Shown here: one piece after another, positions 8,668 to 50,397 of the stretch
Layout: each line of letters begins with the position of its first letter
Position numbering within the stretch: the first letter of the stretch is position 1
DNA from: Prorocentrum cordatum
Taxonomy: Eukaryota
Length of the DNA stretch: 64,000 nt
NCBI GenBank assembly: GCA_963575745.1
Contig: CAUYUJ010000001.1
Location: forward strand, 2,108,001 to 2,172,000
Reading direction: 5' to 3'
Made by a program: the position numbers and the translations under genes
The notes under the pieces: generated by a model
Database searches by the model: none
The model's input: the letters and a program-made list of their open reading frames with translations, nothing else
What the model was told of the DNA's origin: nothing

Positions 8668-11600
8668 TCACACCAGGCCTCGTTGGGCCTTTTCCCGCTT
8701 GGACAACACCTTGGGCCACTTGTTGAGCCCGATGTTTCTTAAATATTCTTTACGGTTGGCAGTAATCTTATCAGGCTGGCACGGCTTCCCTAAATTGGCT
8801 CGGCGTTTCGATACGTAGAACCCGCAGCATATACAAAACCAAACTCCTAATGTAGTATGGTACCGCATCTGGTGCGAGGAATCTACCCACCCCCCAGCCA
8901 TATGAAGACGAGCCCCCTTTGTGAGAGATTTATACACGCCCCCTAAAGACTTTAATTCACAGCACTCGCTCTGGCGCCAGGTCAGGATCTCACTGTCGGC
9001 TGCCGTGCTATGGCAGCGCAAGCATTTTTCCCCGCAATCTGACAGCTGGTGCTGAGCGCTGAAAAAGGACAGCTGCTTTGCACTCGGGGGAGGCAGGTGT
9101 CTTGGCTCACCATCTTTTTTCTTCCTCGGACGCTCAGGGCATATCTCTTTTTCCTTGGCCAGTGCATCAAGGGTGGCCCGCAACATACGATGTCGAATGA
9201 AAAAGGCCTTTTTTCCACCACAGCAATCTTGGCACGGACCTCCGCGGGCACACGCACTGCTTCCGCTGCTATCTCGGCTACCTTATCTGCTGCTGCGTTG
9301 CCAACGATCAGCCATTCTGGGAACTTTTTTTCATACACTGCAGTGCCGTCCAAGTGTGAATTCACAAACAATACAGAAATCTGGGACTCGCAGCGGCTTG
9401 TTAACTCGATATGCTCATTGATCTTACTCCAAAGGTCAGCATCTGGCCCGTCTGGGCTCCTCCACTTTCTGTCGTACCAGCCTGTGACAACCGAAAAATT
9501 GTCTGCTATGTACAGCAACTCTCCTGATGTGACCTCGAGCGCCTTCAGGAAAGCTCTCAACTCGCCACGGGCAACAGTTTGTCTTGGCCCAACTAGGCCT
9601 CCGTGGATGGTTCCAAGAAGCTGCAGCTCGGGTTCATTACGATTGGGGTATCGGGCAACTGCAAGACCTACTCCAACTCGGCGGAGCTTGGTGCTTTTGC
9701 TGTCTTCTCCTCCGCTCGCGTCACCGAACACGACTGCTGGCACCTGGCGATTTCCTACTGCAACGACTCCAGTCAGATCAGCCTCCAGATCACCTCCTAC
9801 ACTCCACTCCTCAACTTGTGCTGGTGGGGGGGGCAGAGGTCCAAGGGGCGGGTATGATTCCTCGCAACCAGAAGCACTCCGCTGACTCCCACTGGGAGTA
9901 CGCTTCACTTACATATTCATCCGATAAGGCATATACTTTGTTTTCTTTGTTTTGTTCGCATCCCCATATTCTATGAAACGGTGTTTCCACAGCTTGACCA
10001 CAGCGAGGGCATTTATTACATATTTGAACATTCTTGGCCCACTGGGCCCTGCGTGCTCTTGGCCACGTTCCTCCAGTCGCTATTGATACCATCAATTCTG
10101 AAAGTCTATGTCCATTTGGAATATCACGCAATTGTTTAACGAGCTGGGTATAAGACTCCATGTCCGCTCCGTTTTCTAAACCACTTCCACAAAAATGTCC
10201 ACTAGCCTTTTTCCAATACATGTTTTGGCGATCCTCCGTGAATTCCGATAGAATGTATTCAGCTGTGTTTACTCCCGTCCACTTGGTGAATGCTTCTTTT
10301 GGGAAATTCCACTCGGCCACTTCCCCATGGATTGTCTGAGGCCGCTCCCATGACTCGGCATTTGTGGGGGTCCACCCCGTGTCGAGCAGGTACGAAATAA
10401 CTGCTGTCATCGGCCCCCTTATATTCCTCGAGCGAAGGTTTGCTGGCATATCCGAAAACTTTTTGACTTGAGCGCCCCAAACCTGTCTGATCGCTGGTTG
10501 GAGGTGCTTCCCCTCATGGGCCCACATACGGAACCACAACTGCAAACAATCCGTTGGCATCTTTACTCCAGGGTCAGCACCAGGGCATTTCAGAGCGAGT
10601 AAGCTGGCTAAGCAGCGACCCGGTGTGGGCGCCGCGCTGATAGCTCCCAATCTTTGCCTGAAAACCTGAAGATTCTTGCCGAATGCCCCGTGCAGCTGGT
10701 GGCCATATGAGCCTGCTGCATACGCGCCCTGTCTTTCCAACCTTTGCATCACTTTATACTTTCTTGAAGCATGCGCGAACTTCTTTATTTTTTGATGCAT
10801 TAAGTTGGCTTTGCCCATTCTTTGTGTTCTTACATTCCTTGCCAAACGTTTTCCACCTCCCAAGTCTGTGCCTAAGTACGCCATCTGCGACTGTGCCACC
10901 ATTGGGAAACCTGCTTGCCTAACCTTTTTTGCGATGTACCTGGCGTCTTCAAGCTTTGTACACAACACTGCACTCTTGCATGCAATCGTCAGTTTCTGCT
11001 TTTGGAGGCCTTGGCACGTTGCTATTAAAACATCTGTTAGTTCTTTGCGTATCATTTTTCTCGACCCCTTTGTACTCTGACTCAAGTCATCAATCCAGAT
11101 CCGATGGGAAAAGTTTGGATGTGCACACGTGATTGTTTGAAGTACAAAATACACAAGGGCCCTCGCGAACCTCGTACCTGACCTCAGCCCTTGGATTATT
11201 GAAAGAGTTGGCATGATGGGTGTAGCAACCGACCCTGACTGCCTCAGAAGAGGCGGGGCTGTACATTGAAGCAATTCTAAGTACAAGACTCGAGGAGGAT
11301 ACCCGAGCTTAAGTGCACAATAGATCAACTTGTCCCATACGATTGTGTCGTAAAATCCTTTTATATCTGTGAGTCCATTCCCAATATTCACTTCTAAGTG
11401 GCCTGCCAGTTCTTCGTCCAGCACTCTCACGAAAGCCTCTCTTAAGGCTGCATGTCCCTCTACTGCCGCGTCCCACTCTGGTGATGTGGCTCTTGACCAC
11501 TCTGACACTAACGGGTCGCGTGCTTGAGACCAGATGCGACATGTCATGGCCATGAGCCCAATGACTCTGTCGCCGTCTCCTCGATGTTTGGGCTGCATAT

Positions 11601-13815
11601 GTCCGATCACCAGTTGCGTCTGACACGGCCATGTCAATGTGTGCTCTATCAACTCATACAATTCACTCAGACTTTGCAGGGCTGTGTCAGGCTGCCTTTC
11701 CACATCTGTCGGTGATAGCCTGTCCACCCCTTGTCCAATATTCGGCCTCATTTTTTTTGTTGCTCTTCTGATTTCATCTGGCTCCAATGGCAAAAGGGGG
11801 TCCGCTTGGGCTTCCTGACGCGCATGTGCAAACGCTGCATCTAGCTCTTCCAGGCTTTCCAACTTTGGACTCCACAACTTTTCCCACTTTGGTAACTTTG
11901 CATCCAGGATAACTTTCGGCGACGTGTGCATTTCTCCTTTCTCATCCTGAAACTCCTGCTTGACCAGTGGCGCATCCTTTATTGAACGATGTAGGGCTCC
12001 CAAGGCTTGAGGCGATTCCACCCACTCTTTGAACTTTTCCAGTGATTTGAACAACGCTCTGCCTTGAGATCTTTTTGCCACTTTGGTAACCAATTTTACA
12101 ATCTTTGTTAACGTGCCGTCACTTTGCTCATCAATCGTTCTTCTGATTCGCTGGATGCTGCTGAACGTTGGCTCCAGTCGTGTAAGAACCTCCGACGCTT
12201 TTTGAGGTGCACTGTTAACCAATTCTTTACATGCTGCCAAATACATTTCTGTCTGTTGCTTCCCATTTTGCCTTTCTCGGTGTCGGCCCAAATTCTCAAG
12301 AATTGTCGCCATCCGAGTCCACCAATTTGCTACTTCATCATATAGGGGTTGAGTGCCACCCATCTGCGATTGCTGAACTGTCCCTGTATGGAAACTGGCC
12401 GAACTCGTCCGAGATGGGCCAGGCGGTAACTGACATGCGTGATGTGTGCAGATACTTTCCTCCAGCGTTGCGATCCATGTCGCATACGCGCTCGAAACTG
12501 CACTCAAATGGCTAGAGCCAAAACGGTTACAGAGAGAGTCCAGGAAGTGGGGAGAGGGGGGGCAACTGCTGGCATGGATATAGCCAACCCGCGACCTGCT
12601 CTCCCTCCAGGTGACCTCGGGGATCCAGAACGTGGGGCTCTCTCCTTGGGGCTCGTCGTGGCTGTTTAAACGAGGCGGCGGAGCAAAGCACACACAACTG
12701 GGATCCGAGGGGGCCGTGTCCTGTGAGAGCCAATCGCGCTCAGGCCACTCCTCGAGATTATCTTCAACCTCGAATTCAAAATGACCATCTTCCTCACCCT
12801 CGGCAGGAGCACTTCTTAGTTGCTCAGCTGGAGGGCTCGGGTCTAAAGCATCGTGAAACATCTCTTTATAAGCTTCTATACGCTTCTCCCTAGCAAGCGA
12901 TTGTTTAATTTTGCGAGCATTCCTAGCAAGAGACGATTTGGATCCCTCCGTGGCCTCTTTGGTCGGACGGGGCTCCTGGGGCAACCTACCTGGCAGCTTT
13001 AACACGCGGGTCTCAAGACTAGTTCCCTCAGACAGGATCTCAACCGAGAGGCCGATATGGGGCTTCCAGGGCACACTGACCACAGGAGCTATGCTCTTAA
13101 TGAGGGGTCGGGCGGAGACCGAGCAGACGATATAGTCAAGATGCGAGCCGTTTTTCCCTGGCGAGCACGTCACCTCAACGGGCGCCTGCACAACTGCTCC
13201 TCCCACAGCATCAAGAAAACCTGATTTCATCAAAGTCTGAGGTGATACGTTGAAGTCACCCGCGACCGCCCACGGCACTTTCAACGAAGTGAGCAGGGCA
13301 CCCAAATGATGATATCTCGCGATGTTTTTTCCTGTCATCCCTATCGATGGATGACCATAGAACATGATTAGCGCCATTGCAATTCCCTGGAACTGAAAGA
13401 GTGTAGGACAGAAGCCGTCCCAACAAGCCTGACCTTTGGCCTGACTTGACTTCATACACTCTGGTCCCAGCAACGGCTTGATTTGTAAATGACCTTTTGA
13501 TAAGATCCACTCTCCCCATTCATTCGACTTAGCTGCTCTGGCAGCCGAAACATGCTTGTGAGTCTGTCTCGCTTTGTTGGCTAGCAATCTCAACTTCTGT
13601 TTACGAGCACGAATGTCCCATTTTTTTATTTGAGCGGCAGCCACATGTGTTTCAACAAACCCAATGTATTCGTAGCTATCAAGCTTTGTCTCCACATATC
13701 TCCAGCACTTGTCCCCCATTGCCGTGATATTCGCAAAGAAAAAATTGCTCACCCCATTGTTAGTACTTGTGCTAACTCCTGCCTCCGAGTTGCCCATCTC
13801 AGAGGCTCCTTTCAC
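8668..13815 (-). CDS. LINE ORF2: AP endonuclease, reverse transcriptase, RNase H, Cys-rich tail; frameshifts near 9850 and 9190
   Basis: APE: GFVETH, AGDFN, HLDY, WKPH. RT: GVDRL, DRVIGL, DIKGFYD, IIQG, WIDD, YLG. Zn motif CPRCG..ETPFHRIWGC. RNase H (8982-9908 frame): FGDASGG, QTVARGELRA, ADN, VNSH, GNAAAD. Tail: CLRC..WFCICCG..KPC. Confidence 0.9.
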
Positions 13816-13827
13816 GTCGGAACCTAG

Positions 13828-36442: not shown

Positions 36443-36463
36443 TCCGTAGCCATTTTGGCCAAG
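36443..36463 (+). other. Dinoflagellate spliced-leader relic upstream of GH92
   Basis: TCCGTAGCCATTTTGGC-CAAG: SL with one deletion, 44 nt before ATG 36508. Confidence 0.92.
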
Positions 36464-36507
36464 GGGCCAGGCGCCGCCGCGGTCGACCGTGACGGCCAGG
36501 CCCTCTT

Positions 36508-37581
36508 ATGCCATGGCTCCATGCAGGGGCGCCCTCTCTTTGGCCTCAGCTATTCGGAGCGTGGCTTCTTCGGGGCTGCCCACATGAAGCCGTGGCGTTC
36601 CCGGTGACCGAACCCGTGGATTGGGTCAACGTGTTGTCGGGCGCGGCGGGCGGCGAGCGCATCGGGCAGCACCACAGTGGGGGGAGCACGCTGCCGCTCG
36701 CTGCGCTGCCGTGGGGCTTCAACCACTGGGCGCCCCAGTCGAACAGCGACAAGACGAGCTGGTGGTTCGACGCCGACTCCGACACCTTCCGAGGCATCCG
36801 CTGCACGCACCAGCCGTCGCCTTGGATAGGTGACTACGGCTGGTTCCTCCTGCGGCCCTTCCAGGGCTCCCCGAAGGACGAGTGGGTGGGCTTCACCTCG
36901 TACCGCGCGGCAGGGGCGTTGCAGCCGCACTCGATCGACATCACCGCCGGGCCCTACGGGGTGCGCACCGAGCTGGTGCCCACGCAGCACGGCGCCGCTC
37001 TGCGGGTGACATTCCCGGACGTCGTGCCGGCGGACAAGCGGCGCGTCTGCGTGCTGGTGCCGCGCGGGCTCGCGAGGGACGAGGACGAAGCGCGCGCCGC
37101 CGAGGCTTCCGACAGGCCCACCGGCTCCTGCAGCGCGCAGTTTGGCGAGATCAGTTTGGTCTCGCGCAAGTTCGCACAAGGCGTGCCCCTGGGCTCCGAC
37201 TTTGCGCTCTACGCCTGGCTCGAGGCGGAGGGGCTGAACGCGGAGGAGCGGGAGGAGACGGACTGGTGCTTCGAGCGGGATGTACGCTACGTCAAAAAAG
37301 ACGGAGCGCTCACCATGAGGGGGCACCCGAAGAAGAAGGCGGGCAGCGCCCAGAAGTGCCAGGAGAGGTGTTTTCTCGCCCTGGGGTGCGAGAAGTTCTC
37401 TTATCTGGACGACGGGAGCTGCTACCTGCTCAACGAGCCGATGGTCCTGCAGAGGGCTGAGGGCGCCGTCTCCGGACCCGCCGACTGCGACGGGCAGGTG
37501 CAGCCGGTGGGCAGCCGGGAGTGCTGCTTCCTCGCCGGGGAGCGGACGCAGGTGGAGGTGCGGATCGGCACCTCGCTCATC
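36508..37581 (+). CDS. GH92 alpha-1,2-mannosidase, exon 1 (N-terminal domain with inserted PAN/Apple domain at 37264-37488)
   Basis: GSTLP..PWGFNHWAPQ, GIRCTHQPSPWIGDYG, ..RIGTSLI; the 3' boundary is inferred from protein continuity. Confidence 0.88.
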
Positions 37582-37732
37582 TCGAAGAACAAAGGGGCAT
37601 GAACATAATTGCTCGGAGTTCCGCGCGGATTTCTCGGATCTGGGCCCCGCCGCCTGGGCCCCTTGGCCACGCCTCCGGCGCCGCCCCTGGCGCGCTCCAC
37701 GCGCCAGGGAGGGGGTTCAGCCCGATGAATCA

Positions 37733-37893
37733 CCACCCACCAAACCACCCCAAGCCAACCCGAAGGCTCAGATTTACTCTCGATTTCCAGTGGGGGGGGT
37801 GTCGGGAAACATCGAAAAAACACATGTGGTACCCTTACCCCCCCAACCCGAAATTCGGGTCTTCGGGTTGGGTTGGGGTGGTCTGGTGGGTAG
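37733..37893. mobile_element. TCA-flanked MITE nested in GH92 intron 1
   Basis: Same family as 25182-25352. Confidence 0.8.
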
Positions 37894-38034
37894 TCAATGA
37901 AGAAATTCGCGTGGAGCTCCGAGAGTTTATTTCCCCCCCAGGCCTAATGGGGCTCCAGTTTTCGCCCCACCCACGTCTTCTTCTCCCGTCCCGTCCCGTC
38001 ACTTCCCCTTCTCCCGCTCCTCGTCCTTCTCGCG

Positions 38035-38050
38035 CGCACACGCATACACA

Positions 38051-38126
<76 letters not shown>

Positions 38127-38245
38127 TCATACACTTGCACACACACACACACACACACACATTATAGCCGTGCACACACAACACCAACGCACCATACACC
38201 CCAGACGTATGCATCAGGGCGCACACACATCACACACACACAAAC
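38035..38245. repeat. (CA)n microsatellite, followed by a ~90-bp tandem repeat to ~38640
   Basis: Direct reading. Confidence 0.85.
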
Positions 38246-38649
38246 AGAATACACTCATGCTTCGGGTCGGTCGTCCAAGGCATAGCAGGCATGGCACTGG
38301 CACTTTCGCGACACCAGAGGGGGTGCGCAGGGGGTGGTCCCTCACTACGGTCTCTATACGCGCCAATCTCTCAGGGGCCTAGCAAGCGTGCGATTCACGA
38401 CGCCCGAAGGGGGTACGTATAGGGTGGACCCTCCCCTCGATCTCTACACGTCCCAATAGCGCATGGCCAAGCAGGCGTGGCACTTTTTCGACAGTGGAGG
38501 GTGTGCAGCGTGTGGTTCTTCACCGCGGTCTCTACACGCGCCAATGTCGCAGGGCCAAGCAGGCGTGGCACGTTCTCGACACCAGACGGGGGTGCGCCGG
38601 GCGTGGTCCCTCACCGCGGTCTCTATTCGCGCCAGGCGGAGGTCGACGC

Positions 38650-41530
38650 AGGCCCTGACCTTCCTCGATGCGTCAACGAGTTCGATTCCATCGCCATTGA
38701 GCTGGTTAGTCACGAGGATCGCGTCTGGCACCAGGGGCATTTTCACGACCCCGATCGTCTTCCGGGAAAATCCGAGGACCCCGCGCGAGGTGTCAAGTGA
38801 CGATCACCTTGGCTTCCCAGGTGGGCAGGGCTCCGCGCGCCCCCCCTCGGGAACGGGGCCCAGCCGGGGCCGAGCGCGCCCGGGCCCGGTCGGCGCGAGA
38901 ACGGGCGCGAAGCTCGCCCGGGAGGTTGCGGCGGGACCAGATTCAGCGAGCCAGCGCGGCCATGGCACCTTCGACTCTTCGGAAGTGCGCGCCTGGGCAG
39001 TGGGTCTTGATGGGGGGCGAGTTATCGCGGGCCTCCTCCCGACGGGGCTCTGCGGGGGTTCGAGCGGGCGCTCGGCGTGGCCCCAGACTGGCGGCCCCCC
39101 GCGAGCGCGGCGCCGCGCGGGCGCCCGCGCGCCCGCGCCAGTGGAAGCGTTTTTCGGCCCAGGCGCGGCCCGCCAGTTCAGAGAAGATTCCAAGCGGCAG
39201 GGGCCGCAGCGGCGGGCGTCGTCTCGGAGGGCCTCTGCGGTCGACGCGGGGAGGGCGCCCGGGCCCAGCCTCTCCAGGCCGACGCGATTGGCATAGGCCC
39301 TAGGCCTTCTGGGCCAGCTCCGGAGGCCGAGGTCATTCCCCCCATGGGGCCCGCGTCTCATGTCGAGCCCCCGGCACCAGTCAGTCCGGGATCCGCTCGT
39401 CCCCTTTCGATTGCCGAAGAAGATGGCGTGTTCCTCCTCCTCCTCCTCCTCCTCCTCCTCCTCCTCCTCCTCCTCCTCCTCCTCCTCGTTTTGTTTTCCT
39501 CCTCCTCCTCCTCCTCCTCCTCCTCCTCCTCCTCCTCCTCTTCCACCTGGTCAGGGGTCAGGGGTCGAGGTCTGAGTCCGAGTCCTCGGCCGCCGGCAGT
39601 CTGGCGTTGCCCTATCCGACCGATTCCGCGTTTCACGATTGGCGGGTCTGCAGTCGCAAGACCCTGGTTCAGCCAGACGACGTGCCAGCGATTGCCCGAT
39701 GAAGTCGGGAAGGGTTGCGCTCGGCCCCCGGGCGCGAGCGATGTCGGGCGGGCCCGAGTCGGAGCCGAAAAGACCGCGCCCGGGGGGGGGGGGCCGGAGA
39801 TTCTTTTCACCGAGCCCCGCTCGCTCGGCGCGACCCTGCGGAAGGTGGCCGATATCGAGACCGGCGGACCTCGCCAGCCCGGAGCGCCCCGGGGGAGGCC
39901 CCCGCAGCTGCGCGGCGACCGCCGAGGGGGGGCGCAGTCCGAGCGACCGCCAGCCCCAGGCGCGCCGCTCTGGGCGACGGTGGATTCGGAGGGCGGCCTC
40001 CAGGCCGTCGCCGCGGGCAGCATCCCCACGGTAGGTTCGTGTCGTGTCGACCGGCGGCGACCCCGCCAGCGGCGTTCAACTTTGAACGCCGGCGGCGGCC
40101 CAGAATCGATCGATGTTGAACGATTGGACGTTGCGGAAACGGCCGATCGTTCAAGGTTGAACGATCCCCGCGGTGTCAAAAACCAACGCTGGGGTCGGCA
40201 CGACACGAACCTGCCGCAGGCGCTTCGCGGGCGAAGAAGGCCCCGGAGGCTCGGCCTCATCAGCGCCCAGCTCACGCAGCTCGGACTCGCGCGCCATCCG
40301 GCGCGGCTCGGACGCGACGGGCAGGCCGTCTCCAGAGGGGCGGGCCAAGTCCGACGCGCGGAAGCACCCCTAGTTCCAAAGCTGCGAAGGCGATTTCCCC
40401 CAAGGAGGCGGCGGCCGCGCGGTGGGCGGCGCCGGGGCGCATCATGAGCTCCAGGTGGTTCGCCGGTGGACACGGAGGGGACTTTCAAGTCTCCCGCCGC
40501 GCTGTCGCGGCGGCGCGTCCACGGTCGCCAGGGCCCGGGCACCGACCCCCCAGACCAGTCACGACGTTTTTCCCGGCGGCGATGAATTCACAAATGAGAT
40601 GCGACATCGCGGACGTCGGGAACGCGCCCCGTCAAAGTGGCAGGTCTGACCGGGGCATCTGCGCAATGCCCCCGGGCCCCCGCCCCCCGCGGGCAGTCTC
40701 ACCCAGCCTCTCGCGAACGCGCATGGCCTGCACGACGCGCCCTTCGCTGGGGAGGCGCACCGTCGCCGGGGAGCTGGTCGAGTCGGGGCCGTGTCGGCAT
40801 GTTCGGCATGGCCCTCGCGAGCAGAGCATCAGCGCGATCGCGCGGGAAGTCGACGACTTCTTTATGACGCCCAGAAGGGCAGCCGAGCGGAAGCGACTCG
40901 GGGAGAGTCTCGAGAGCGGGCTTCAGTTCGACATGGCCGAGATTGCCGCGAGGGGCTGGTGGGCTACGCGGGAAGGGCGTCGACACATTGTCGACCGAAG
41001 GTTCTTGTGGACATGGCGAGGTACAACTTAGAAGAGGCCGCCCCCCATGAGCATGATCCCCGGCAACTTTCTCGGCGGGGAGGAGATCCGCGCCCCGCGC
41101 CACCCTCGTCTACCGCCCGAACTGGGGAGGTCGCAGGCGTCGCCCAGAAGCGCGTGGAGTGGCTCGCATGCTGGCGCGCCCCGACTGGCGGCCCCCACCG
41201 CTCGGGGCGTGATGCGCGCGAGCGAGAGCTCGCCGGGCATCCGCTGGCGATCGCTTCTCGGGGGCTTGCGGCCTGGGCTTTGCACCGCGAGCGCGCGGCT
41301 CTCGCGACATATCCCGACGCCGGCGGCGCGGGGGCCGCTGCCGGGGTGCGCGGCGACGACGCCCTCCTGGCCGACCCCGCCCAAGGGGCGCGCGCGATCC
41401 CCGCCCCTCGCGCGGATCGGGTTCGAAAGCGCCCAGTGAACGCTCCGGTGAGCGGATGGCGCAGTTGCAGGCGCAAGAGAGGGGCCCATTTGCATTTCGG
41501 CCAGAGAAGCGCTCTCGCTTTCCGCGTCGG
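38650..41530 (+). mobile_element. Heavily decayed Ty1/copia-like pol relic inside GH92 intron 1
   Basis: Motifs in copia order across frames: RIMSSRW, DIADVGNAPRQ (~DV..AFLQ), NAHGLHDAP (~VYGL.DAP), REVDDF, TYPDAG, GWRSCRRKR (RNase H). No LTRs seen; boundaries approximate. Confidence 0.65.
40029..40216. mobile_element. 188-bp MITE, copy 3 (flanked CA/CA)
   Basis: Same length and sequence family as copies 1 and 2. Confidence 0.85.
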
Positions 41531-43192
41531 TGTCTGAGGTAGACTGTGCGCCTCATTGTGTCGTGACGTGGTTGTCCATGATGTTTCCAGACTGCTCGCG
41601 GGCTTCCAGCTTCTCGGTGCTGAGATCGCAGCGCACTCTGGATAGTGGCAGGGCCACTCGGTTGCAGTTCGTCGATGCCAGATCTTCGCACGATACTGCG
41701 ATGAAGGAAGGGGGCGCTTCTTCTCAAGATAAACGCACTGCACTAGAGTTAGCCATCGTGTCCGAGGGCCTCGCGAATGCCACAGGGTAGTGCGATGGCC
41801 CCCCCGCTCCAAGATGCCAGCGGGCCGGCCTGCTAATGGCGCATTGGCAAGTCGAACGCGGCGCTGTCCCAGATCTCGGCGCCCGGCAGGCTGGCGCTGG
41901 CGGAGGGGCCCGCAGAGGCGCAGGCCCGCCGCCAAACGTCCGAACGAAAACGGTCGATTTCACGCGGCGTCCCATAGGACGCTGGAAGCAGAGGAGTCTC
42001 GATGATTGGGGTCTCGAGTCGACGAGGCCAGCAGGATGCCTCGGCCTCTGCTCGCGTGCTCGCTCTCGTTAGTTCCCACATGTTGTTGTCTTGTTTATTT
42101 CTTTATGTGTTGTTACTCTCTCTCTCTCTCTCTCTGTCACTCTCTCCCTCTCTCTCTCTCTCTTTCTCTTCGTTTTTTTGCTCTCTCTCTCTCTCCTCCC
42201 TCATCTGGTCGTCGACTCGACTGGGCCAGAGCTGCCGAAACTACCAGACAGTTTGACGAACGTTCACATCGATATCGCTTCGGGCGCCCGATGTCCAATA
42301 CAGGCCTGGCGCGAATATAGTTTTTCCCGAAGCAGTGCATGCAGCATTAGAGGTTCTTACTTCGGCTAACCATCTCGGGGCCGCCGCCGCAAAATCGCCG
42401 CCGCGCCGCCCGTCGCCGCCTGTCGCCGTCGCCGCCCATCGCCGCCACCCCCGCCCGTCGCCGCCCGTCGCCGCCCGCGCCGCCCGTCGCCGCCTGTCGC
42501 CGTCGCCGCATCGCATCCAGTGCGCCGCATAGATTGCGTATCAATAGGGTGGTACTAGTACGAGTACTAGTAATCGCAGTCGCTGGCTACCACAAGTAGA
42601 GCAGTTCTGGCACGCACGTTACCTTAGTGGACTCTGGGCGCCATGGTTCAAGTCCGATATATATATATATATATATATATATATTACTGTCGGCCCCGCT
42701 GCCACAACTAGTCCCTGAACGCAAGGAGTGGCAGGCTGGCATACTGGCATTTCGTCGACACCACAAGTGGTGTGCACAGGGGTGGGCGCTACATCCGTCG
42801 CAGGCTCGCAAAGCGTTGCCTGCGTGGCACTTTCTCGACATCGCGGATGGTCCGCAGGGCGCGGTTGCCGTGGCCGTCGCACTCTCGCAACCAGTGGGCT
42901 TCATGTCGAAGAGCTGCGTACCGCCGCGCAGGAATGAATATGACAAGGGCGGAATGGGAGGGAACCAACATTGAAAAGGGAAGAGGGGAGCATTGAGGAT
43001 GTTTACGCACTGCTGCGCTGCACACGTTGAGACATTGCGTAGGTGTCGCCAAGATGCACCACACTATGTTTGAACGTTCGGGAAAGCGGGATACGACACA
43101 GGTCATGCACACACACACACACACGACATAAGATGAGCATGTGGGGCTCCTCGGTAACGACACGTTTATGCATGCATTATTCTTCGACCATT

Positions 43193-43839
43193 TCGTCAAC
43201 CCAGAGCTTCGCCGCGTTCATGCAGGAGGTGCACGGGCGGCCGTTCGAGGCCCTGGCGGCCGTGGCGAGGGACACCTGGAACTCTCAGCTGGCGCAGGTG
43301 GAGGTCGCTGACGCGGGGCCGAACGCCGCCTCGACGTCGCGGCGGCTCCGGATATTCTACACCTGCCTCTACCGAGCGCTGCTCTTCCCTCGCCGCCTGG
43401 ACGAGCAGACGGCGGAGGGCGTGTTCCACTGGAGCCCCTACGACGGGAGGGTCCACGACGGCATCGGGGTGACAGACAACGGTTTCTGGGACACGTTTCG
43501 GACGGTGTACCCGTTGCTGGCTTTGGCCTACCCCAGGCAGCTTGGCGAGCTCGTGCAGGGGTGGTTAAACGCCTACAAGTATGGCGGCTGGCTTCCGAAG
43601 TGGGCCAGCCCAGGCTACCGCAACAGTATGATTGGTACCTTTGCCGACGTTGTTGTGTCGGACGCGATACTCAAGCACATACCCGGTTTCGACACAGCCT
43701 TGGCGTGGGAGGCGATCCGGAAGGATTGCTACCAGTCAAGCGACCCGAACGACACTGCCAGGGGGAAGCATGGCCTTTCCTACTACGACAGTCTAGGTTT
43801 TGTCCCCGCGGACGTTGGTATCGCCGAGTCCTGCTCCAG
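43193..43839 (+). CDS. GH92 exon 2
   Basis: FYTCLYRALLFP, DNGFWDTFRTVYPLL, GGWLPKWASPG..MIG, ESCSR; ends at a GA donor; 5' boundary uncertain (43193 or 43205). Confidence 0.9.
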
Positions 43840-43966
43840 GATTTCGGAGGGGGACAACGGTACAGATCCACCTCGTTCCCCTCCCTCCCCTCCCCCAGAA
43901 AGGAGGAAGGCATTCTGAGGAGGGAGGGGGAAAGGAGGTGGATCTTTATACACGTTCGATGTCCAG

Positions 43967-44141
43967 GACTTTGGACTTTGCCTTTGCCGACGCCGCCTCG
44001 GCGGCAGCGGCGGACCAACTGGCGCACCCAGAGGATGCCCAGAGGCTGCGCGAGAGGAGCGCGCGCGCGCTGAAGGCGCTCTTCCGCGCGACAGGCGGCC
44101 TCATGGGACCCCTCGGCAAGGACGGCAATTTCTCGACCCAG
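43967..44141 (+). CDS. GH92 exon 3
   Basis: (R)TLDFAFAD...GLMGP..DGNF; flanked by GA-AG introns 43840-43966 and 44142-44309. Confidence 0.85.
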
Positions 44142-44309
44142 GAAGTCGGGGAACAGACAGCTGCACAAACATATAAACTTTCGCAGCCCCGCGCGCGGAT
44201 TTCTCGGATCGACACCGTGACCACCGTGGCGGCGCGCCGATCCCAGACACCCGCGCGGACCTCCCACAGCCGTTGTCTATATGTTTATGTAACTCCTGCT
44301 TCTTCGAAG

Positions 44310-45056
44310 GAGGGCAACACGTGGGGCAACTGCTTCATCGAGGGGTCTGCGTGGCATCACTCCTTCCCGCCGTTCAACCTGCCAGCGCTGCTCGAGCTGC
44401 ACGGTGGGCGAGGAGCACTGATGGCTCGACTGCGGGACCTGCTGTCGACGCCCGCCACCTTTCAGGTCGGGTCCTACAAGACCACGATACACGAAATGCG
44501 CGAGATGCGCATGCTCGGCATGGGGCAGTACGCGCACAACAACCAGCCGGTGCACCACGTGCTGTACCTCTTCTCCATGCTCGGCGACCATAACTCAACT
44601 GCGCAGCTCGTGCGGCAGGTGCTCTCCCGCGCGTACTCGACGAGCGGCTTCGTCGGCGACGAGGACAACGGTGAGATGGGCGCCTGGTTTGTCCTGAGTG
44701 CCCTCGGACTGTACGCGCCCGCAGTGGGAACCACCGACGAGTACGTCCTGGGCGCCGTGCCGCTGTTTCCAAAGACCGTCCTGCACAGCCTGGGCATCAC
44801 CATCGAGGCCCCGTCCGCCTCCCAGGAGGCGCCCGCCGTCGCCGAGGTCCTCTGGAGGTCGTCGCCTCTCACGGGGGCGTCGGGGGCATCGGTGCGCTAC
44901 CGATCCTTGCGGGCTGGTGGAACTATGCGCTGGGTATCTCCCGGCGATGCCAGGATCGGCCGCGCCGTCTCCAGGATGCGCGGCACGCTCGGCGAGGCAA
45001 TGAAGAGGGTGAGCCCTGGGATTGGTGAGAAGTCGCTGCCCCAGCGCGCCGACAGC
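44310..45056 (+). CDS. GH92 exon 4 (catalytic motifs)
   Basis: FIEGSAW, IHEMREM, QYAHNNQP, GDEDNGEMGAWFVLSALGLY; 3' boundary 45056, or 45008 if the GT donor is used. Confidence 0.9.
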
Positions 45057-45058
45057 AT

Positions 45059-45338
45059 TCGAGGAGGATGGAATTGCATACGTACACAGAAACTTTCGGA
45101 GTTCTGCGCGGCTTTCTCGGGTCGGCGCCGGCCCCCCCTCCCTGGCGCGCTCTGCGCGCCAGGGAGGGGGCCCCGCGCGAATCCGAGAAATCCGCGCGGC
45201 GTTTCGAAAGTCCACAACTATGCAGTTTCCTCTCCCGCCGATCGGCGGCGAGCCCAGGGGGGGAAGCTCCTCCTTCTCCTCCTCCTCCTCCTCCTCCTCC
45301 ACCTCCTCCTCCTCCTCCTCCTCCTCCTCCTCCTCCTC

Positions 45339-45369
<31 letters not shown>

Positions 45370-45780
45370 TCATACTCCTCATCCTCATCCTCGTCCTTCT
45401 TCTCCTCCTCTTCCTCCGGCAGAGGGGGTGGGCCTTCTCAGAAGGATCAGAAGGCCTCCGGCTTTCTGAGAAGCTATCGCGTCCCTCTCTGCAGACACGG
45501 GTGGCTTCCCAGAAGGCGCGATGGCTCCCGATAGGCCTCGCCACTTTCTGAGAAGGCCTGCCCCCTCCAAGATCCTTGTCGTTTGGCTTTCGGCTCGTAA
45601 CTTTTTGTTTCCTGCGGCCGTTCGAGAAGATCGTGGGCACCCCCAGAGCGTTCTCGGCGAGGCGCAGCCGCTGTAACGCATCCCGAGGCTGGAACACCAC
45701 CTAGAACGAACGAAAACAGCCCGAAGACCTATCGAACCCGAAGCCACTACATTTTCCCCCTGGTCTCGCCGCCGATCCGA
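45059..45780. mobile_element. TCGA...CCGA element forming GH92 intron 4, with nested MITE 45242-45775
   Basis: Direct repeat AGCAT at 45054-45058 and 45780-45784; nested TIR TCGGCGGCGAGCCCAGGGG / CCCCTGGTCTCGCCGCCGA flanked GCCGA/TCCGA. Confidence 0.8.
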
Positions 45781-45782
45781 GC

Positions 45783-45929
45783 ATGCCGCAGCCCGCCTCC
45801 TGGCAGCTGCCGGGTGCGGCGGCCGCCTGGCTCCCCTGGGCGCTCGGCGTGCTGCTCGCGGCGGGCACAGCGCACCGCTGCTGCACGGCGTGCGCGTGCT
45901 GCCCTGGCGCCGCAGACAAGGCCGAGTGA
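45783..45929 (+). CDS. GH92 exon 5: TM anchor and Cys-rich tail
   Basis: MPQPASWQLPGAAAAWLPWALGVLLAAGTAHRCCTACACCPGAADKAE*; in frame once the element plus one TSD copy is removed. Confidence 0.72.
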   Translation: MPQPASWQLPGAAAAWLPWALGVLLAAGTAHRCCTACACCPGAADKAE

Positions 45930-46034
45930 CACCTTGCCGCGGTGGGCGGCCGCGCCTTGTCGGCGACGAGAAACCAGTCGACCAGTCGATGCTGTCCCAA
46001 TCCATGCAGATCTCCGACGATGTGTGTCCTTCGA

Positions 46035-46056
46035 TCCGTAGCCACTTTGGCTCAAG
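46035..46056 (+). other. Dinoflagellate spliced-leader relic upstream of the EAL gene
   Basis: TCCGTAGCCACTTTGGCTCAAG (21/22), 26 nt before ATG 46083. Confidence 0.95.
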
Positions 46057-46082
46057 CCCCTGCCTGGCGTCTGGGGTGCAGG

Positions 46083-47357
46083 ATGTCTTTACTAAATCAG
46101 CAGCAGATGTTCGAGCTTGTGGCCGCTAGCTATCCAGACGTGTTGACCAGGAGTGTGTATCGACCTATGCAGCTGCCAAAGCCCCTCTTCGCAATGCCCC
46201 TGCAGGATAAGCAGGAGCTGTTCGTAGAGGCGCTCCAGGGGATGTTGCGAGATGCGAACAGAGGGAAGCCTCTTGTGGAGGTCGCGTACGATAATAACCA
46301 GTCAAGACTGTTTTCGTTCGGGCTGCAGCCAGTATGGGAGGCGCGCGAGAACAAGGAGCAGTCGAGGCTTGTCGGCCTGGAGAGCCTCCTGGCGCTGCAC
46401 ACCGGCACCTGGGGCGTCGGCCTCGTGGTGGACGTGCTCGAGAACCTGCTCGACTCCGACGTGGAGCTCTACCTGCAGTTCAAGGGCCTCGAGATCAAGG
46501 CGGCCGTGAGCGCCCTGGAGGTCTTCCCGAACCTGCCGTCCATCAGCGTGAACCTGCGGCCCTCGGAGTGGCTCCTGCTGGAGGTCCAGAGCCTGGTGAT
46601 CGACGCGACCCACTGCGCGCCGGGCCGGATCATCTTCGAGGTGACCGAGTACACGCAGGACGCCCACTTCTCCAGGTTCTTCGGGGAGCAGGGCCCGCTG
46701 CCGCATCGCCTGAAGGAGACGCTGCTGCCGGTGCTGCGCCGCATGAAGGAGGCGGGCGTGACGCTGCTCGCGGACGACCTGCTGCCTGCCAGCGTGTATC
46801 GCTTCGACTGCGAGGCGTCGCACAGGAATGGCCATCGCCTCGCGGACCACCACGCAACCGAGAGCAGCACAATGTTGTCGGCAGACTGGTCCGATGCGTT
46901 CGATGGCGTAAAGTTTGGCCTCGAGTGGATCGTCCACGCAATGAGCCTAGGAAAGCACAGTGGCGCGGACTATGCCGCAGTGCCCCTGTATGCCAAACAC
47001 GTAAAGGATAGTTCTACTTACGTCGCAGCAGTGACCGATAGCCCAGTCCCAGAAGAGGAAGTGGATAAGCGTGCTGCTCTTCGTGACCTTCAGGCGGCGG
47101 CAAAGGTGGAGTTGCAGGCTGTTCTGAAAGATGTCCAGGAACGTGCGTTCAAGCACTTGCCTGTTTTCGAGGCGACACTGCCACCCGCTGCGATCGTCGA
47201 ATGGGGCCTGGAGGGTGCCGCGAAGGAGCAGGGAGGCGTGTTTTTCGAGGCTCGATTTCCCCCCGCGTGGTTCTACGGCTCGGTACCTTCTTTCCCAGAA
47301 GCGCGGTTCCCAATGGTGTCCCGCTACAAAGTGCACGCATCATACCTTGAACAATAA
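46083..47357 (+). CDS. Intronless EAL-domain (c-di-GMP phosphodiesterase-like) protein, 424 aa
   Basis: LQPVW..VGLESLL, ISVNL, RIIFEVTE, LRRMKEAGVTLLADDL, FDGVKF, VFEA, EQGG appear in EAL order. Confidence 0.8.
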   Translation: MSLLNQQQMFELVAASYPDVLTRSVYRPMQLPKPLFAMPLQDKQELFVEALQGMLRDANRGKPLVEVAYDNNQSRLFSFGLQPVWEARENKEQSRLVGLESLLALHTGTWGVGLVVDVLENLLDSDVELYLQFKGLEIKAAVSALEVFPNLPSISVNLRPSEWLLLEVQSLVIDATHCAPGRIIFEVTEYTQDAHFSRFFGEQGPLPHRLKETLLPVLRRMKEAGVTLLADDLLPASVYRFDCEASHRNGHRLADHHATESSTMLSADWSDAFDGVKFGLEWIVHAMSLGKHSGADYAAVPLYAKHVKDSSTYVAAVTDSPVPEEEVDKRAALRDLQAAAKVELQAVLKDVQERAFKHLPVFEATLPPAAIVEWGLEGAAKEQGGVFFEARFPPAWFYGSVPSFPEARFPMVSRYKVHASYLEQ

Positions 47358-48910
47358 TTGTGAATCCCGTGTGGCAGGTGGTAGTTTATGCAAGCGTCGT
47401 TTGACGATTGCGTTTGGCTGTTGGCTCCCTTCTCATTGAACGCAGAGTGATCGAGTCCGGAGGAGCAGCATTCCTCCCAGCCTCTTCCTCTGAAACACAG
47501 GTACGTGTGGCCTCACAGCACCCAGCGTCAGTGTACCGACTGCCCAGGGTGCATCAGGTCGCTTGTGCTCGCAGCCTCGCTGTATGAGTGGTGATTCTGT
47601 CCAACCCGCCCGTTGTTCTTTGTCTGTAGTGCTCCACCATGTGGTATGCGATGGGCCGACGGCCCATACTGTGTTCTCTGAGCATGGTCAGTTCGGCACC
47701 GGCATGCTCCCACGTGAGAGCAGCTCGCCCGCGCAGGATGTTTCATCTGTTCTCGAAGCCGAGTGGAGAGAATCAGAGGAGCAAAAAGTAACGAGCCACC
47801 CCGAAATTGTGGATAAGAGTCAGGGGACACATGCGGGGTGGGTCGCGGGGTGTGTCGCGGGTGGGTCGCGGGTGGGTCGCCGGAGAGGACGATGACGACG
47901 AAAATATACAATTGTTTTGTTTCGAGCGATACATACCGAAAGTTCCTGCATCTGTTATCGAGTCTGGTACTGTTTGTTACTGTGGCCAGCCTGAGCTCGG
48001 CGCGCATGTGGATCAAACGCGATTACTCGGTTGGAGCTGGATACTAGTTTAGCACGTTCGATTATGTTCTATTCATACATGGCGTATTCCTGTGGCCAGG
48101 CTTTCGTCGGTTCGCATGTTGCGTTTGATAGGGCGCCGCTAATCGGTCGCTGCTGTGTTCTACTGTCATGAATTGTAATGGATGTTCACTGATAGTTTCT
48201 TCTCTTACACTCTAGTATGTTATGTTCTGTTCTGGATGGGCCGGCGTTACGTCGTGACGCCTGTCATGATTGATGCGTCTTCCAATCGGTCGGTTTTGGG
48301 CCTCTTCGTTACCGTGGTCAGCCTGACCTCGGCGAGCATGTCGCGCTTGATAGAACGTCGTGAATCGGTCGCTGGTGTTTCCTTTTTCCGTTATATTTAG
48401 CCATGTTCGATTCTGGACTATCCTCATGTATTGGGTTATTGTATGGTATGGTGTGTTGCCTTACGTGTTGTATACAATATATTGTCCTTCCGTGTCCTGT
48501 TACTTCCAATTTTATTGTATGACATTTCATTCGGCGGTATTATGCGGCCTTGTGGCTTCTGGTATGTCGCGTGACAGTATGTGATATTCGTGTGTGTTCG
48601 GGCACAGCATCTGCATTGTGTAACCATACTGTTCAATGCGATCTGGACATCACACTCAAACTTGCGTTATTACTGTCTCTTCTATGCTATGGTTTCGACT
48701 GTCTGGATTCACGCAGTGGCGAAGCGTCCCGGCGTGCCTATAGGCCTACCAAACAATGTTCTAATAACCGTTTGTGGTATCCACGAAAGGTTCTTAGAAC
48801 ATTTCTGGCTGGGACGGCCTTGTTTCAACACATCGGGCTTATGTTCTAAGAACAGTGTTTTTGTTTTTGGGGCATTTCTGGGTTCTAAGAACATTGGAAA
48901 GAGCGTGTTT

Positions 48911-49820
48911 TACCGCTGCTGGCGGAAAACCGGGGGGGGTCACTACCGGTTCGAACCCCTCCCCCCCCCCTCCGGCAAACGGGGGGGGGTCACTACCGGT
49001 TCGAATCCCTCTCCCCCCCCCCCGTCCATCATGAAAAGGAGAGGGGGTCACCCCCTGTTTGAACCCCCCCCCCTCCGCCCTCGAAAACCGGGGGGGGTCA
49101 CTACCGGTTCGACCCCCCCCCCCTCCTCGAAAACCGGGGAGGGGTGCGGACAGTGGTGGGGACGGTGGTGGTGGGGACAGTGGTGAGGGGACAGCGGGAC
49201 AGTGGTGGGGACAGTGGGACAGTGGTGGGGACAATGGTGAGGACAATGGTGGGAACAGTGGTGGGGACGGTGGTGGTGGGGACAGTGGTGTGGGGACAGT
49301 GGGGACAGTGGTGGAAACAGTGGGACAGTGGAGGGTGCAGTGGTGGTGGGGACAATGGTGACGGCGGTGGCGAGGACGGCGGTGGGACAATGGGACAGAG
49401 GTACAGTGGGGACAGTGTGGGGAGAGTGGGGACAGTGGTGGGAACAGTGGGACAGCTCAGTGGGACAGCGGAGGAGTCAGTGGGACAGTGGGGACACTGG
49501 GGATAGTCGGGCAGTGGTTGGGGCCGTGGAGAAAGTGGGGAGAGTGGAACCGTGGTGGGAACAGTGGCGGGGACAGTGGGGACAGTGCGACAGTGGTGGG
49601 GGCACTGGTGCGGACAGTAGGGACGGTGGTGGAACCAGCGGGGGCAGTGGTGGTGAGGACAGTGGCGCTGGGAACATTAGTGGGGGATGTGGTGCGGACG
49701 GTGGTAGGGATCGGGAGTGGTTTGCTGGCGGTGAGGGGGGGGGAGGGGTTCGAACCGGTAGTGACCCCCCCTCTGGTTTTCAGGAGGGGTTCGAACCGTA
49801 GTGACCCCCCCCCCGGCTTT
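48911..49820 (+). repeat. Second (GGGACAGTG)n satellite element with inverted GTCACTACCGGTTCGAA arms
   Basis: Homologous to 34049-35130; TTCGAACCGGTAGTGAC at ~49750. Confidence 0.85.
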
Positions 49821-50397
49821 CGAGGGGGAGGGGGGGGGGGAGGGGAGGGGGGAGGTTTGCCGGGGAGGGAGGGGGGGGGGGGGAGGGGGGGAGGGGGGGG
49901 TTCCAGCAGGGAGGGGGGGGGGGATTTTCGGGGGGGGGGAACCCCGGGCTCCGGATGAGGGGGCGGAATTTTCCACAGTAAAGCGGCGGTGGATCACGTT
50001 CTCTCAATGCGTGGCGTGGTAGGACTATGGGAACGAAGGGACGGTCGGTCCCTGCTCTGTGGATGGAACGCAGGAAGTGGGAGAGGGAGGAGCGGGGCCG
50101 AACAACGTTAGGCTCTAGTTTTTTCGGGGACGCCCTCGGGTGGTCTCGGATGTGACCCCAGAGGCTACAGTGGGTGTGGGAGGCTTCGCTTATGTATTGT
50201 AGTGGCCTCCGGCCAGTGCCGCCGATCCGGGGGGCTTTTTGGAGGCGTCCTGGAGGCCTCTTGGGGGCGCGCTGGAGGAAGTGTTTTAATCGCGCGGGGT
50301 CTTTTGGAGGCCTCCTTGGGGCTTCTCGGGCCATGCTCGGATGCGGCCCCAGAAGCTACAGTGGGTGTGGGAGGCTCCGCTCATGTATTTTGTCTCC

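Follow-up and report, generated by a model that had tools for sequence, protein, structure and literature searches.

We describe here a gene of the dinoflagellate Prorocentrum cordatum that is predicted to encode a deeply diverged EAL-fold protein, together with the locus in which it lies. EAL domains are a hallmark of bacterial cyclic di-GMP (c-di-GMP) signalling, and dinoflagellates live with dense bacterial partners. The stretch analysed, called the window below, comprises 64,000 nucleotides (nt) of contig CAUYUJ010000001.1 (assembly GCA_963575745.1, positions 2,108,001 to 2,172,000 of the forward strand); all positions are those of the window, and the gene with all its features lies on the plus strand. 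The coding sequence (CDS, 46083–47357) is a single uninterrupted, intronless open reading frame (ORF) of 424 amino acids plus stop, running from the ATG at 46083 to the stop codon at 47355–47357. An alternative in-frame ATG at 46020 would give a protein of 445 amino acids, with 21 extra residues read across the element described next. Since this ATG precedes all RNA contigs, which start at 46041–46045, as well as the start common to the homologues (M-[AS]-L-L-N-Q), we assign the start codon to 46083.

A relic of the dinoflagellate spliced leader (SL), reading TCCGTAGCCACTTTGGCTCAAG, occupies 46035–46056, 27 nt upstream of the start codon. It agrees at 21 of 22 positions, with one mismatch, with the 22-nt pattern that we take to be the dinoflagellate SL (DinoSL), and this pattern, with up to three mismatches allowed, is found twice in the window against 0.00 matches expected from 100 dinucleotide-preserving shuffles. 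Because the relic stands in the DNA upstream of the CDS, the gene is a retroposed copy of a mature mRNA that arose within a dinoflagellate. In agreement with this, the CDS is collinear with the mRNA, as no joint is seen in the RNA contigs within 46041–47777. A tblastn search with the protein found no second copy of the gene in the window. Passages in two sources (PMC6050394, PMC12014239) describe an SL relic in DNA as a diagnostic tag of retrogenes, and a third source, in the part that concerns two Symbiodinium genomes, puts retrogenes at about 23% of genes (PMC5585692). The relic by itself is thus a common tag and no special feature. The AG within the relic (46040–46041) is a candidate present-day trans-splice acceptor, the RNA contigs beginning just after it; trans-splicing there would fit the contig starts, which is a hint only, as contigs cannot prove a 5′ end. 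At the other end, AGCAAAAAG follows directly after the contig ends at 47776–47777, and a clear A tract or poly-A remnant was not seen there.

The transcription unit, made up of the 5′ untranslated region (UTR), the CDS and a 3′UTR of about 420 nt, extends over 46041–47777 as judged from the cover of RNA sequencing (RNA-seq) contigs. The stretch carrying the gene is present, whole or in part, in 19 of the 24 sequencing runs listed (8 studies); 17 of those listed contain at least half of the stretch's words, and three are on record as polyadenylated (polyA) RNA-seq. Contigs of four runs (X1, X9, X10 and X13) were mapped onto 45500–48100. Those of X9 and X10, both polyA RNA-seq, cover 46041–46400 and 46045–46400, respectively, at 0 differences, and 46412–47776 and 46412–47718 at one difference each; those of X1, a run only guessed to be RNA, cover 46041–46400 at 0 differences and 46392–47777 at three, and those of X13 cover parts of the gene only. 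Depth is 0 over the spacer 45761–46021 in X9, X10 and X13, and over the downstream flank 47936–48100 in all four runs. Cover that is limited to one unit in this way argues against stray DNA in the libraries.

Among the contig rows listed, none covers 46401–46411 with the window's own letters: positions 46405 and 46407 read C and T in all contigs, which places Ala-Ser at Gly108-Thr109 and corresponds to the HTASW variant of the homologues P0005 and P0006. The contigs that differ at these two positions probably derive from paralogues or alleles. A pile-up of short RNA contigs with 3–8 differences is also seen at 46335–46493, where depth reaches about 1000, compared with 16–52 for the gene's own contigs; it falls on the segment coding for LVGLESLLALH...DVLE. 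There are probably several expressed paralogues or alleles that have this most conserved stretch in common. One X1 contig has a loose end of 11 letters at 46047, starting CTCAAG, and mismatches the window downstream; this end is a candidate SL tail of a paralogue mRNA and was not used.

The protein has 11 close relatives at 57–70% identity, eight of which (P0002–P0009) cover 94–98% of it and are collinear with it. Several of the close relatives are P. cordatum records, most others lie on contigs of 1.3–2 kb, and one homologue is a transcript from the MMETSP collection. The source name of P0008, given automatically at JGI, is 'EAL domain-containing protein (putative c-di-GMP-specific phosphodiesterase class I)', and the fold assignment is therefore not wholly new. 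HMMER, run exhaustively against 1.84 billion cluster representatives, returned 12 proteins at E ≤ 0.001, all of them members of the family, down to 27–37% identity, and no bacterial protein was among them. A profile search for distant or bridging relatives gave 15 matches, again all within the family, with no new member and no bacterial protein. The 12 representatives are 136–465 amino acids long, and no longer fused relative is found among them. Compared with three homologous contigs, the CDS differs most at third codon positions (0.38–0.44), less at first (0.21–0.30) and least at second (0.17–0.24), an order that points to a constrained coding sequence. Full-length homologues and this pattern together argue that the gene is not a chance ORF.

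Two further observations concern the distant relatives. P0022 (465 amino acids) matches the family with an hhalign probability (Prob) of 98.3 over family residues 1–193; it has a 230-residue N-terminal extension without a Pfam match and stops some 40 residues past ExTE, its match reaching residue 427 of 465; either the record is incomplete or this is a shortened family form. About 110 nt upstream of the ATG of the distant homologues in L023 and L024 lies a decayed SL-like string, TCCGT...TTTTGTGGCTCAAG, which is a hint only.

An intronless gene for a domain that is overwhelmingly bacterial might suggest bacterial contamination of the assembly, or else a dead, unused retrocopy. We regard both as extremely improbable and reject them. 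First of all, the DinoSL relic lies directly upstream of the gene, whose same-strand upstream neighbour, a glycoside hydrolase family 92 (GH92) gene, likewise stands behind an SL-like relic. Second, cover by polyA RNA-seq contigs is restricted to the gene. Third, the ORF is intact, with full-length homologues and third > first > second codon-position divergence as given above. Finally, bacterial proteins are missing from the 12 matches in the 1.84 billion representatives. The gene is intact, host-encoded and transcribed, its host origin following from the relic, a GC content at third codon positions (GC3) of 0.77, the confined RNA contigs and the homologues from P. cordatum and the MMETSP transcript. 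The original prediction, drawn from the letters alone, had placed at 46035–47357 an uninterrupted 424-residue ORF behind a 21/22 SL relic and had argued for a host-transcribed gene rather than contamination. These claims hold: no internal stop interrupts 46083–47357, the relic has its single mismatch and no chance counterpart in the shuffles, the RNA contigs keep to 46041–47777, and expression, on which that prediction depended, was found, polyA RNA-seq included.

What kind of protein this gene encodes emerges from comparing profiles rather than single sequences. When the family alignment (A2, 18 sequences, 12 close and 6 distant) was aligned by hhalign with 17 EAL domains of E. coli K-12, the match reached Prob 95.1 and P 3.3e-8 over 124 columns, covering residues 80–233, whereas one reversed and five column-shuffled templates, used as controls, gave P 0.21–0.74. 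The pairs formed in this register (family/EAL) are LQP/QP, E100/Glu, N157/Asn, E186-x-T-E189/ExTE and D231-D232/DD, and the significance is limited to the N-terminal half, through DD. Against the single PdeL sequence the comparison is not significant (P 0.23), with the register correct. As a lead only, language-model features gave three bacterial EAL-type clusters at the top (scores 0.93–0.94), two of them EAL-type by name and one with Pfam EAL on 45% of its members.

An AlphaFold2 model built from the 18 family sequences only, with no templates, has a predicted local distance difference test score (pLDDT) of 90.7 and a predicted template modelling score (pTM) of 0.89; it replaces an earlier, poor model from the 12 close sequences (pLDDT 55). 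Using Foldseek against the PDB, all matches listed to rank 49 are EAL entries (best E 1.2e-7). Using VIA-align against 48,161 PDB representatives, ranks 1–24 are all EAL or EAL-like, with Z 18.9–13.3 and root-mean-square deviations (rmsd) of 2.8–3.9 Å, and rank 25 is an old-yellow-enzyme-type barrel at Z 8.9. The superposition on EAL domains takes in 204–243 residues within model residues 7–402 (about 31–402 in most rows). The remainder is accounted for by a 75-residue N-terminal lead and about 120 residues in insertions, chiefly 233–272 and 288–355. A hydrophobic N-terminus is not seen in the protein sequence, from which the location is probably cytosolic.

We have to weigh an EAL fold against a generic or unrelated triosephosphate isomerase (TIM) barrel whose likeness to EAL would be convergent or an artefact of prediction. 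The similarity does stay under the Pfam threshold, the model is predicted rather than solved, and the PDB, on which AlphaFold is trained, includes EAL domains. On the other hand, the hhalign P value is independent of any model and its controls are clean, the motifs occur in the same order and on matching strands, more than 4 Z units separate the last EAL-like entry (13.3) from the first other TIM barrel (8.9), and even the pLDDT-55 model ranked EAL first, with 6 of 6 matches at E ≤ 0.001. A generic barrel is thus very improbable. Since profile–profile comparison and structure prediction agree, we consider the fold settled and are nearly certain that the predicted structure is a stand-alone EAL domain, a modified (β/α)8 TIM barrel.

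The residues that carry out catalysis in EAL enzymes have counterparts in this protein, counted here over those of the 18 sequences that cover each site. In the hhalign register, E100-S-L-L-A104 (46380–46394) is the counterpart of ExLxR, with Glu in 15/15. N157 (SVN, 46551–46553), the counterpart of the metal-binding Asn, is found in 17/17 and ends barrel strand 3 (153–158 in the model), and E186-V-T-E189 (FEVTE, 46638–46649) corresponds to ExTE with its metal-binding Glu (E186 in 18/18, E189 in 17/18). D231-D232 (46773–46778), the counterpart of the DD of DDFGTG, is invariant at both positions (18/18 each). Beyond this point the model takes over. K277 (VKF, 46911–46913), in the sixth model strand (275–278), is Lys in 18/18 and is likely the counterpart of the catalytic Lys of KxD. 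E363 (FEAT, 47169–47171) follows strand 361–362, the seventh of the model, and likely corresponds to the general-base Glu of EGVE; it is present in 16 of 17 sequences, the exception being P0021, whose C-terminus is garbled, and is paired with the EGVE Glu in a low-confidence part of the hhalign alignment. Q383 (EQGG, 47229–47231; 17/17), in strand 381–383, is likely the counterpart of the Gln of QG(Y/F); in the tail of the hhalign alignment, where confidence is low, it is offset from the EAL Gln by no more than one residue. Taken together, the putative metal-binding and catalytic positions hardly vary across the family, even in members at about 30% identity.

The surroundings of these residues are much altered. 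Residues 233–272 (46779–46898), a gap in the hhalign alignment with EAL, put LLPA in place of the loop 6 sequence FG(T/A)GYSS, and an insertion peculiar to the family, about 35 residues long, comes next; P235, Y239 and T259 are invariant within this segment. Across the family, DD is followed by L/M/A/V, then L/M/K, then P (18/18), compared with F-G-T/A-G in EAL. According to the alignment and the model, a second family-specific insertion occupies residues 288–355 (46944–47147) and has a long helix at 326–354. The YQP substrate motif is itself only partly kept, with Q in 11/15 and P in 9/15, and distant members have H/A or Q/G.

On balance, the reading we favour, with somewhat better than even confidence, is that of a putative metal-dependent phosphodiesterase that uses the EAL mechanism, its substrate left open and possibly not c-di-GMP. 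As the catalytic set is kept, the protein most likely works like EAL enzymes. Divalent metal ions would be held by E100, N157, E186, D231, D232 and E363 and would activate a water molecule, and K277 would help the activated water to cut the phosphodiester bond, as in EAL enzymes. The elements with which bacterial EAL enzymes bind c-di-GMP and shut the active site, on the other hand, have been rebuilt, with the Arg missing, loop 6 replaced and two large insertions added; because of this, the substrate may be other than c-di-GMP. Candidates would be c-di-GMP itself, a different (di)nucleotide, cyclic or linear, or some phosphodiester of another kind. Catalysis and metal dependence, as well as any particular substrate, are here what we infer from the conserved residues and the fold.

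Several observations weigh against this reading. First of all, the best Pfam match of the protein is indeed EAL (PF00563), but at 16.1 bits and E 0.0073, short of the gathering cut-off of 31.3 bits, and it spans residues 77–232 against profile positions 13–153 of 236. With E up to 1 allowed, five of the 12 close members (best E 4.6e-4) and one of the six distant ones (E 0.041) match Pfam EAL; the scores printed for the family, 16.1 and 13.7 bits, are both under the cut-off, and ordinary domain scans miss the family for that reason. An NCBIfam scan of the protein gave nothing meaningful, and no EAL chain was found in the PDB by the sequence or by 12- and 18-sequence profiles at E up to 10; the matches of that search to MS2 coat protein, Cre recombinase and enkurin were at chance level only and were discarded. 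Second, the C-terminal half alone, and two pieces of it, show no significant relation to EAL (P 0.05–0.7). Third, Ala (A104) replaces the Arg of ExLxR in 15/15 sequences, and loop 6, DFG(T/A)GYSS, is absent: D-L-L-P-A-S-V-Y runs into the insertion with no G-x-G-Y-S-S. The Asp position of KxD is likewise changed, being Gly or Ser in 16/18 (Gly here) and Asp in only 2/18. Finally, the equivalences of K277, E363 and Q383, likely as they are, are drawn from strand order in a predicted model and from invariance, and a relaxed hhalign alignment pairs the KID motif with K308-D309 instead of K277. We prefer K277 on account of its invariance, K308 being found in 16/18, and of its place in the model, on strand six of eight, which agrees with the expected order.

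These results also bear on the protein's description in the original prediction. The motifs it named are all present, E100 in LESL, N157 in SVN, E186 and E189 in FEVTE, D231-D232, K277 in VKF, E363 in FEAT and Q383 in EQGG. It was equally right about the missing ExLxR Arg and about DDLLPA standing for DDFGTG (A104 in 15/15, P235 in 18/18), and about insertions, only 204–243 residues superposing on EAL domains. Structure prediction, which it had proposed as a check, did return an EAL/TIM barrel, with ranks 1–24 of 48,161 all EAL or EAL-like. Its assignment to the EAL domain stands at the level of the fold (hhalign P 3.3e-8, structural Z up to 18.9) and fails at that of Pfam (16.1 versus 31.3 bits). 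Its proposal of an enzyme or receptor for cyclic dinucleotide signalling or for manipulating associated bacteria names a candidate role only; the ExLxR Arg and the loop 6 motif of active c-di-GMP EAL enzymes are absent.

The most conventional alternative would be a canonical c-di-GMP-specific EAL phosphodiesterase (PDE-A), linearizing c-di-GMP to pGpG. The fold and the full conserved set of putative metal and catalytic residues are what such an enzyme would have, and both the name of P0008 and the title of the original prediction imply one, but we nevertheless think it unlikely. The Arg is absent throughout, loop 6 has become LLP plus an insertion, and the Q and P of YQP are lost in a good part of the family. 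We know of no source of c-di-GMP in the organism. A full-text literature search found no papers on dinoflagellate-encoded EAL or c-di-GMP enzymes, though such papers may exist beyond its coverage. In one account, as far as the relevant passages go, active EAL enzymes are defined by ExL, the metal ligands, the catalytic Glu (E352 in RocR) and loop 6 DFG(T/A)GYSS, with loop 6 essential for activity and YQP important for the substrate (PMC12943098), which counts against PDE-A here.

The same losses could be read as those of a non-catalytic EAL-fold ligand receptor or protein-binding regulator, like YdiV, LapD and FimX; the large insertions could form new binding surfaces, and the structural matches do include YdiV (Z 14.2), STM1697 (Z 13.3), LapD and FimX. 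Degenerate EAL receptors of this kind have typically lost metal and catalytic residues, and their function lies in binding c-di-GMP or proteins. The pattern in the dinoflagellate family would be the reverse, with the putative catalytic set kept and the substrate side rebuilt, and near-invariance of these positions to about 30% identity is not expected if catalysis has been abandoned. The best structural matches are, moreover, the active enzymes PdeL, PdeA and RocR (Z 17.7–18.9), the differences in Z being small. A receptor is, to our mind, doubtful, and an EAL-type phosphodiesterase with a rebuilt substrate side remains the reading we prefer. A more specific form of that reading, a conserved and expressed EAL-fold phosphodiesterase branch of the dinoflagellates' own, predicted to be competent on cyclic dinucleotides, we put forward tentatively, as rather less than probable. 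If it were true, a major eukaryotic algal group would run or quench c-di-GMP-type signals, either its own or those of attached or ingested bacteria, or else the EAL fold would have gained a new nucleotide substrate by way of the rebuilt loop 6 and the insertions.

As regards origin, the family appears small, eukaryote-only and deeply diverged, with a conserved putative catalytic core and a remodelled substrate side. Identity to bacterial EALs is 13–20%, too low for an informative tree, and the searches above showed no bacterial sequence near the family. Given where EAL domains occur, horizontal acquisition is a plausible candidate origin. The gene is relevant to the fields of c-di-GMP and of algal–bacterial interaction, and it offers an entry point to two questions: whether dinoflagellates sense or destroy cyclic dinucleotides, and which functions are open to an EAL fold with a rebuilt substrate loop. 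One source, in the passage that concerns these molecules, cites the case of Dictyostelium and describes cyclic di- and oligonucleotides as messengers of microbes, 'only occasionally introduced in eukaryotes' (PMC13375341).

Some features of the surrounding window deserve mention. The second SL-like relic, TCCGTAGCCATTTTGGC-CAAGG, with one base deleted, was found by the DinoSL pattern match at 36443–36464 (+). An ORF 29 nt downstream of it, starting at 36493, matches the N-terminal domain of GH92 (E 1.8e-19) and, weakly, PAN, and a GH92 catalytic domain lies 7 kb beyond the N-terminal domain, at 43797–45548 (+; E 1.8e-46), giving a candidate gene span of 36493–45947. If this is one gene, it is SL-tagged and yet apparently split over several exons. 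An X1 contig of 2876 nt joins 45056 to 45780 and ends at 45947, skipping 723 nt (45057–45779); the skipped segment contains a 50-copy CTC repeat (45267–45417), and its ends are not GT..AG. It may be an unusual intron or a DNA length variant, X1 being the run only guessed to be RNA. No Pfam match at E ≤ 0.001 was obtained for 9811–13827 (−), which, at 1338 codons between stops, is the longest open frame in the window. Just downstream of the 3′ end of the EAL gene there are G-rich tandem arrays (47836–47880 and 48923–49923), which include GGGTGGGTCGC in four copies, a 50-nt unit in 4.4 copies, numerous units of the GTGGGGACAGT type and a G-rich run of 77 nt (73% matches at period 1); the long ORFs that these arrays yield, rich in W, G and Q, are spurious.

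We finally compare the gene and its product with known systems. As a locus it resembles the DinoSL-tagged retrogenes of dinoflagellates, which have a 22-nt SL relic just upstream of an intronless CDS, and nothing about it is unusual in that respect; the relic is single, not part of a stack, and a poly-A remnant was not seen. As a protein, it shares the modified TIM barrel of the bacterial EAL phosphodiesterases, represented by E. coli PdeL/YahA (7pk5, 4lj3), PdeA (4hjf, 3u2e) and P. aeruginosa RocR (3sy8), and the predicted model superposes on enzymes of the PdeL/PdeA/RocR type with Z 17.0–18.9 and rmsd 2.8–3.5 Å over 238–243 residues. The Glu (ExL), Asn, ExTE and DD positions of the dinoflagellate protein, and its likely counterparts of the Lys, Glu and Gln, come in the same order and on the same strands as in the bacterial enzymes; like the catalytic part of PdeL, the protein is a single EAL domain without a GGDEF partner domain. 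It differs from them in its identity of only 15–20% in structural alignments, in its Pfam score below the cut-off, in lacking the Arg of ExLxR and loop 6 DFG(T/A)GYSS, with the family lacking the Asp of KxD in 16/18, and in having about 120 residues in insertions and a 75-residue N-terminal lead; it comes, moreover, from a eukaryote and carries neither a sensor nor a DNA-binding domain. A single-domain architecture is also found in the stand-alone EAL proteins of Firmicutes (Listeria 3kzp, 4q6j) and in the 'standalone versatile EAL protein' of Vibrio cholerae (6ifq), and 3kzp gives the highest target-normalized template modelling score (TM-score), 0.75, at Z 18.1; these bacterial proteins, on the other hand, are recognized by ordinary sequence profiles and are without the family's two insertions. 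The degenerate regulators YdiV (3tlq) and STM1697 (5hxg), together with the EAL domains of LapD and FimX, likewise have the EAL fold and have lost some canonical motifs (Z 13.3–17.0). What these regulators have lost, however, are metal and catalytic residues, whereas the dinoflagellate family appears to keep those and to have changed the elements on the substrate side.

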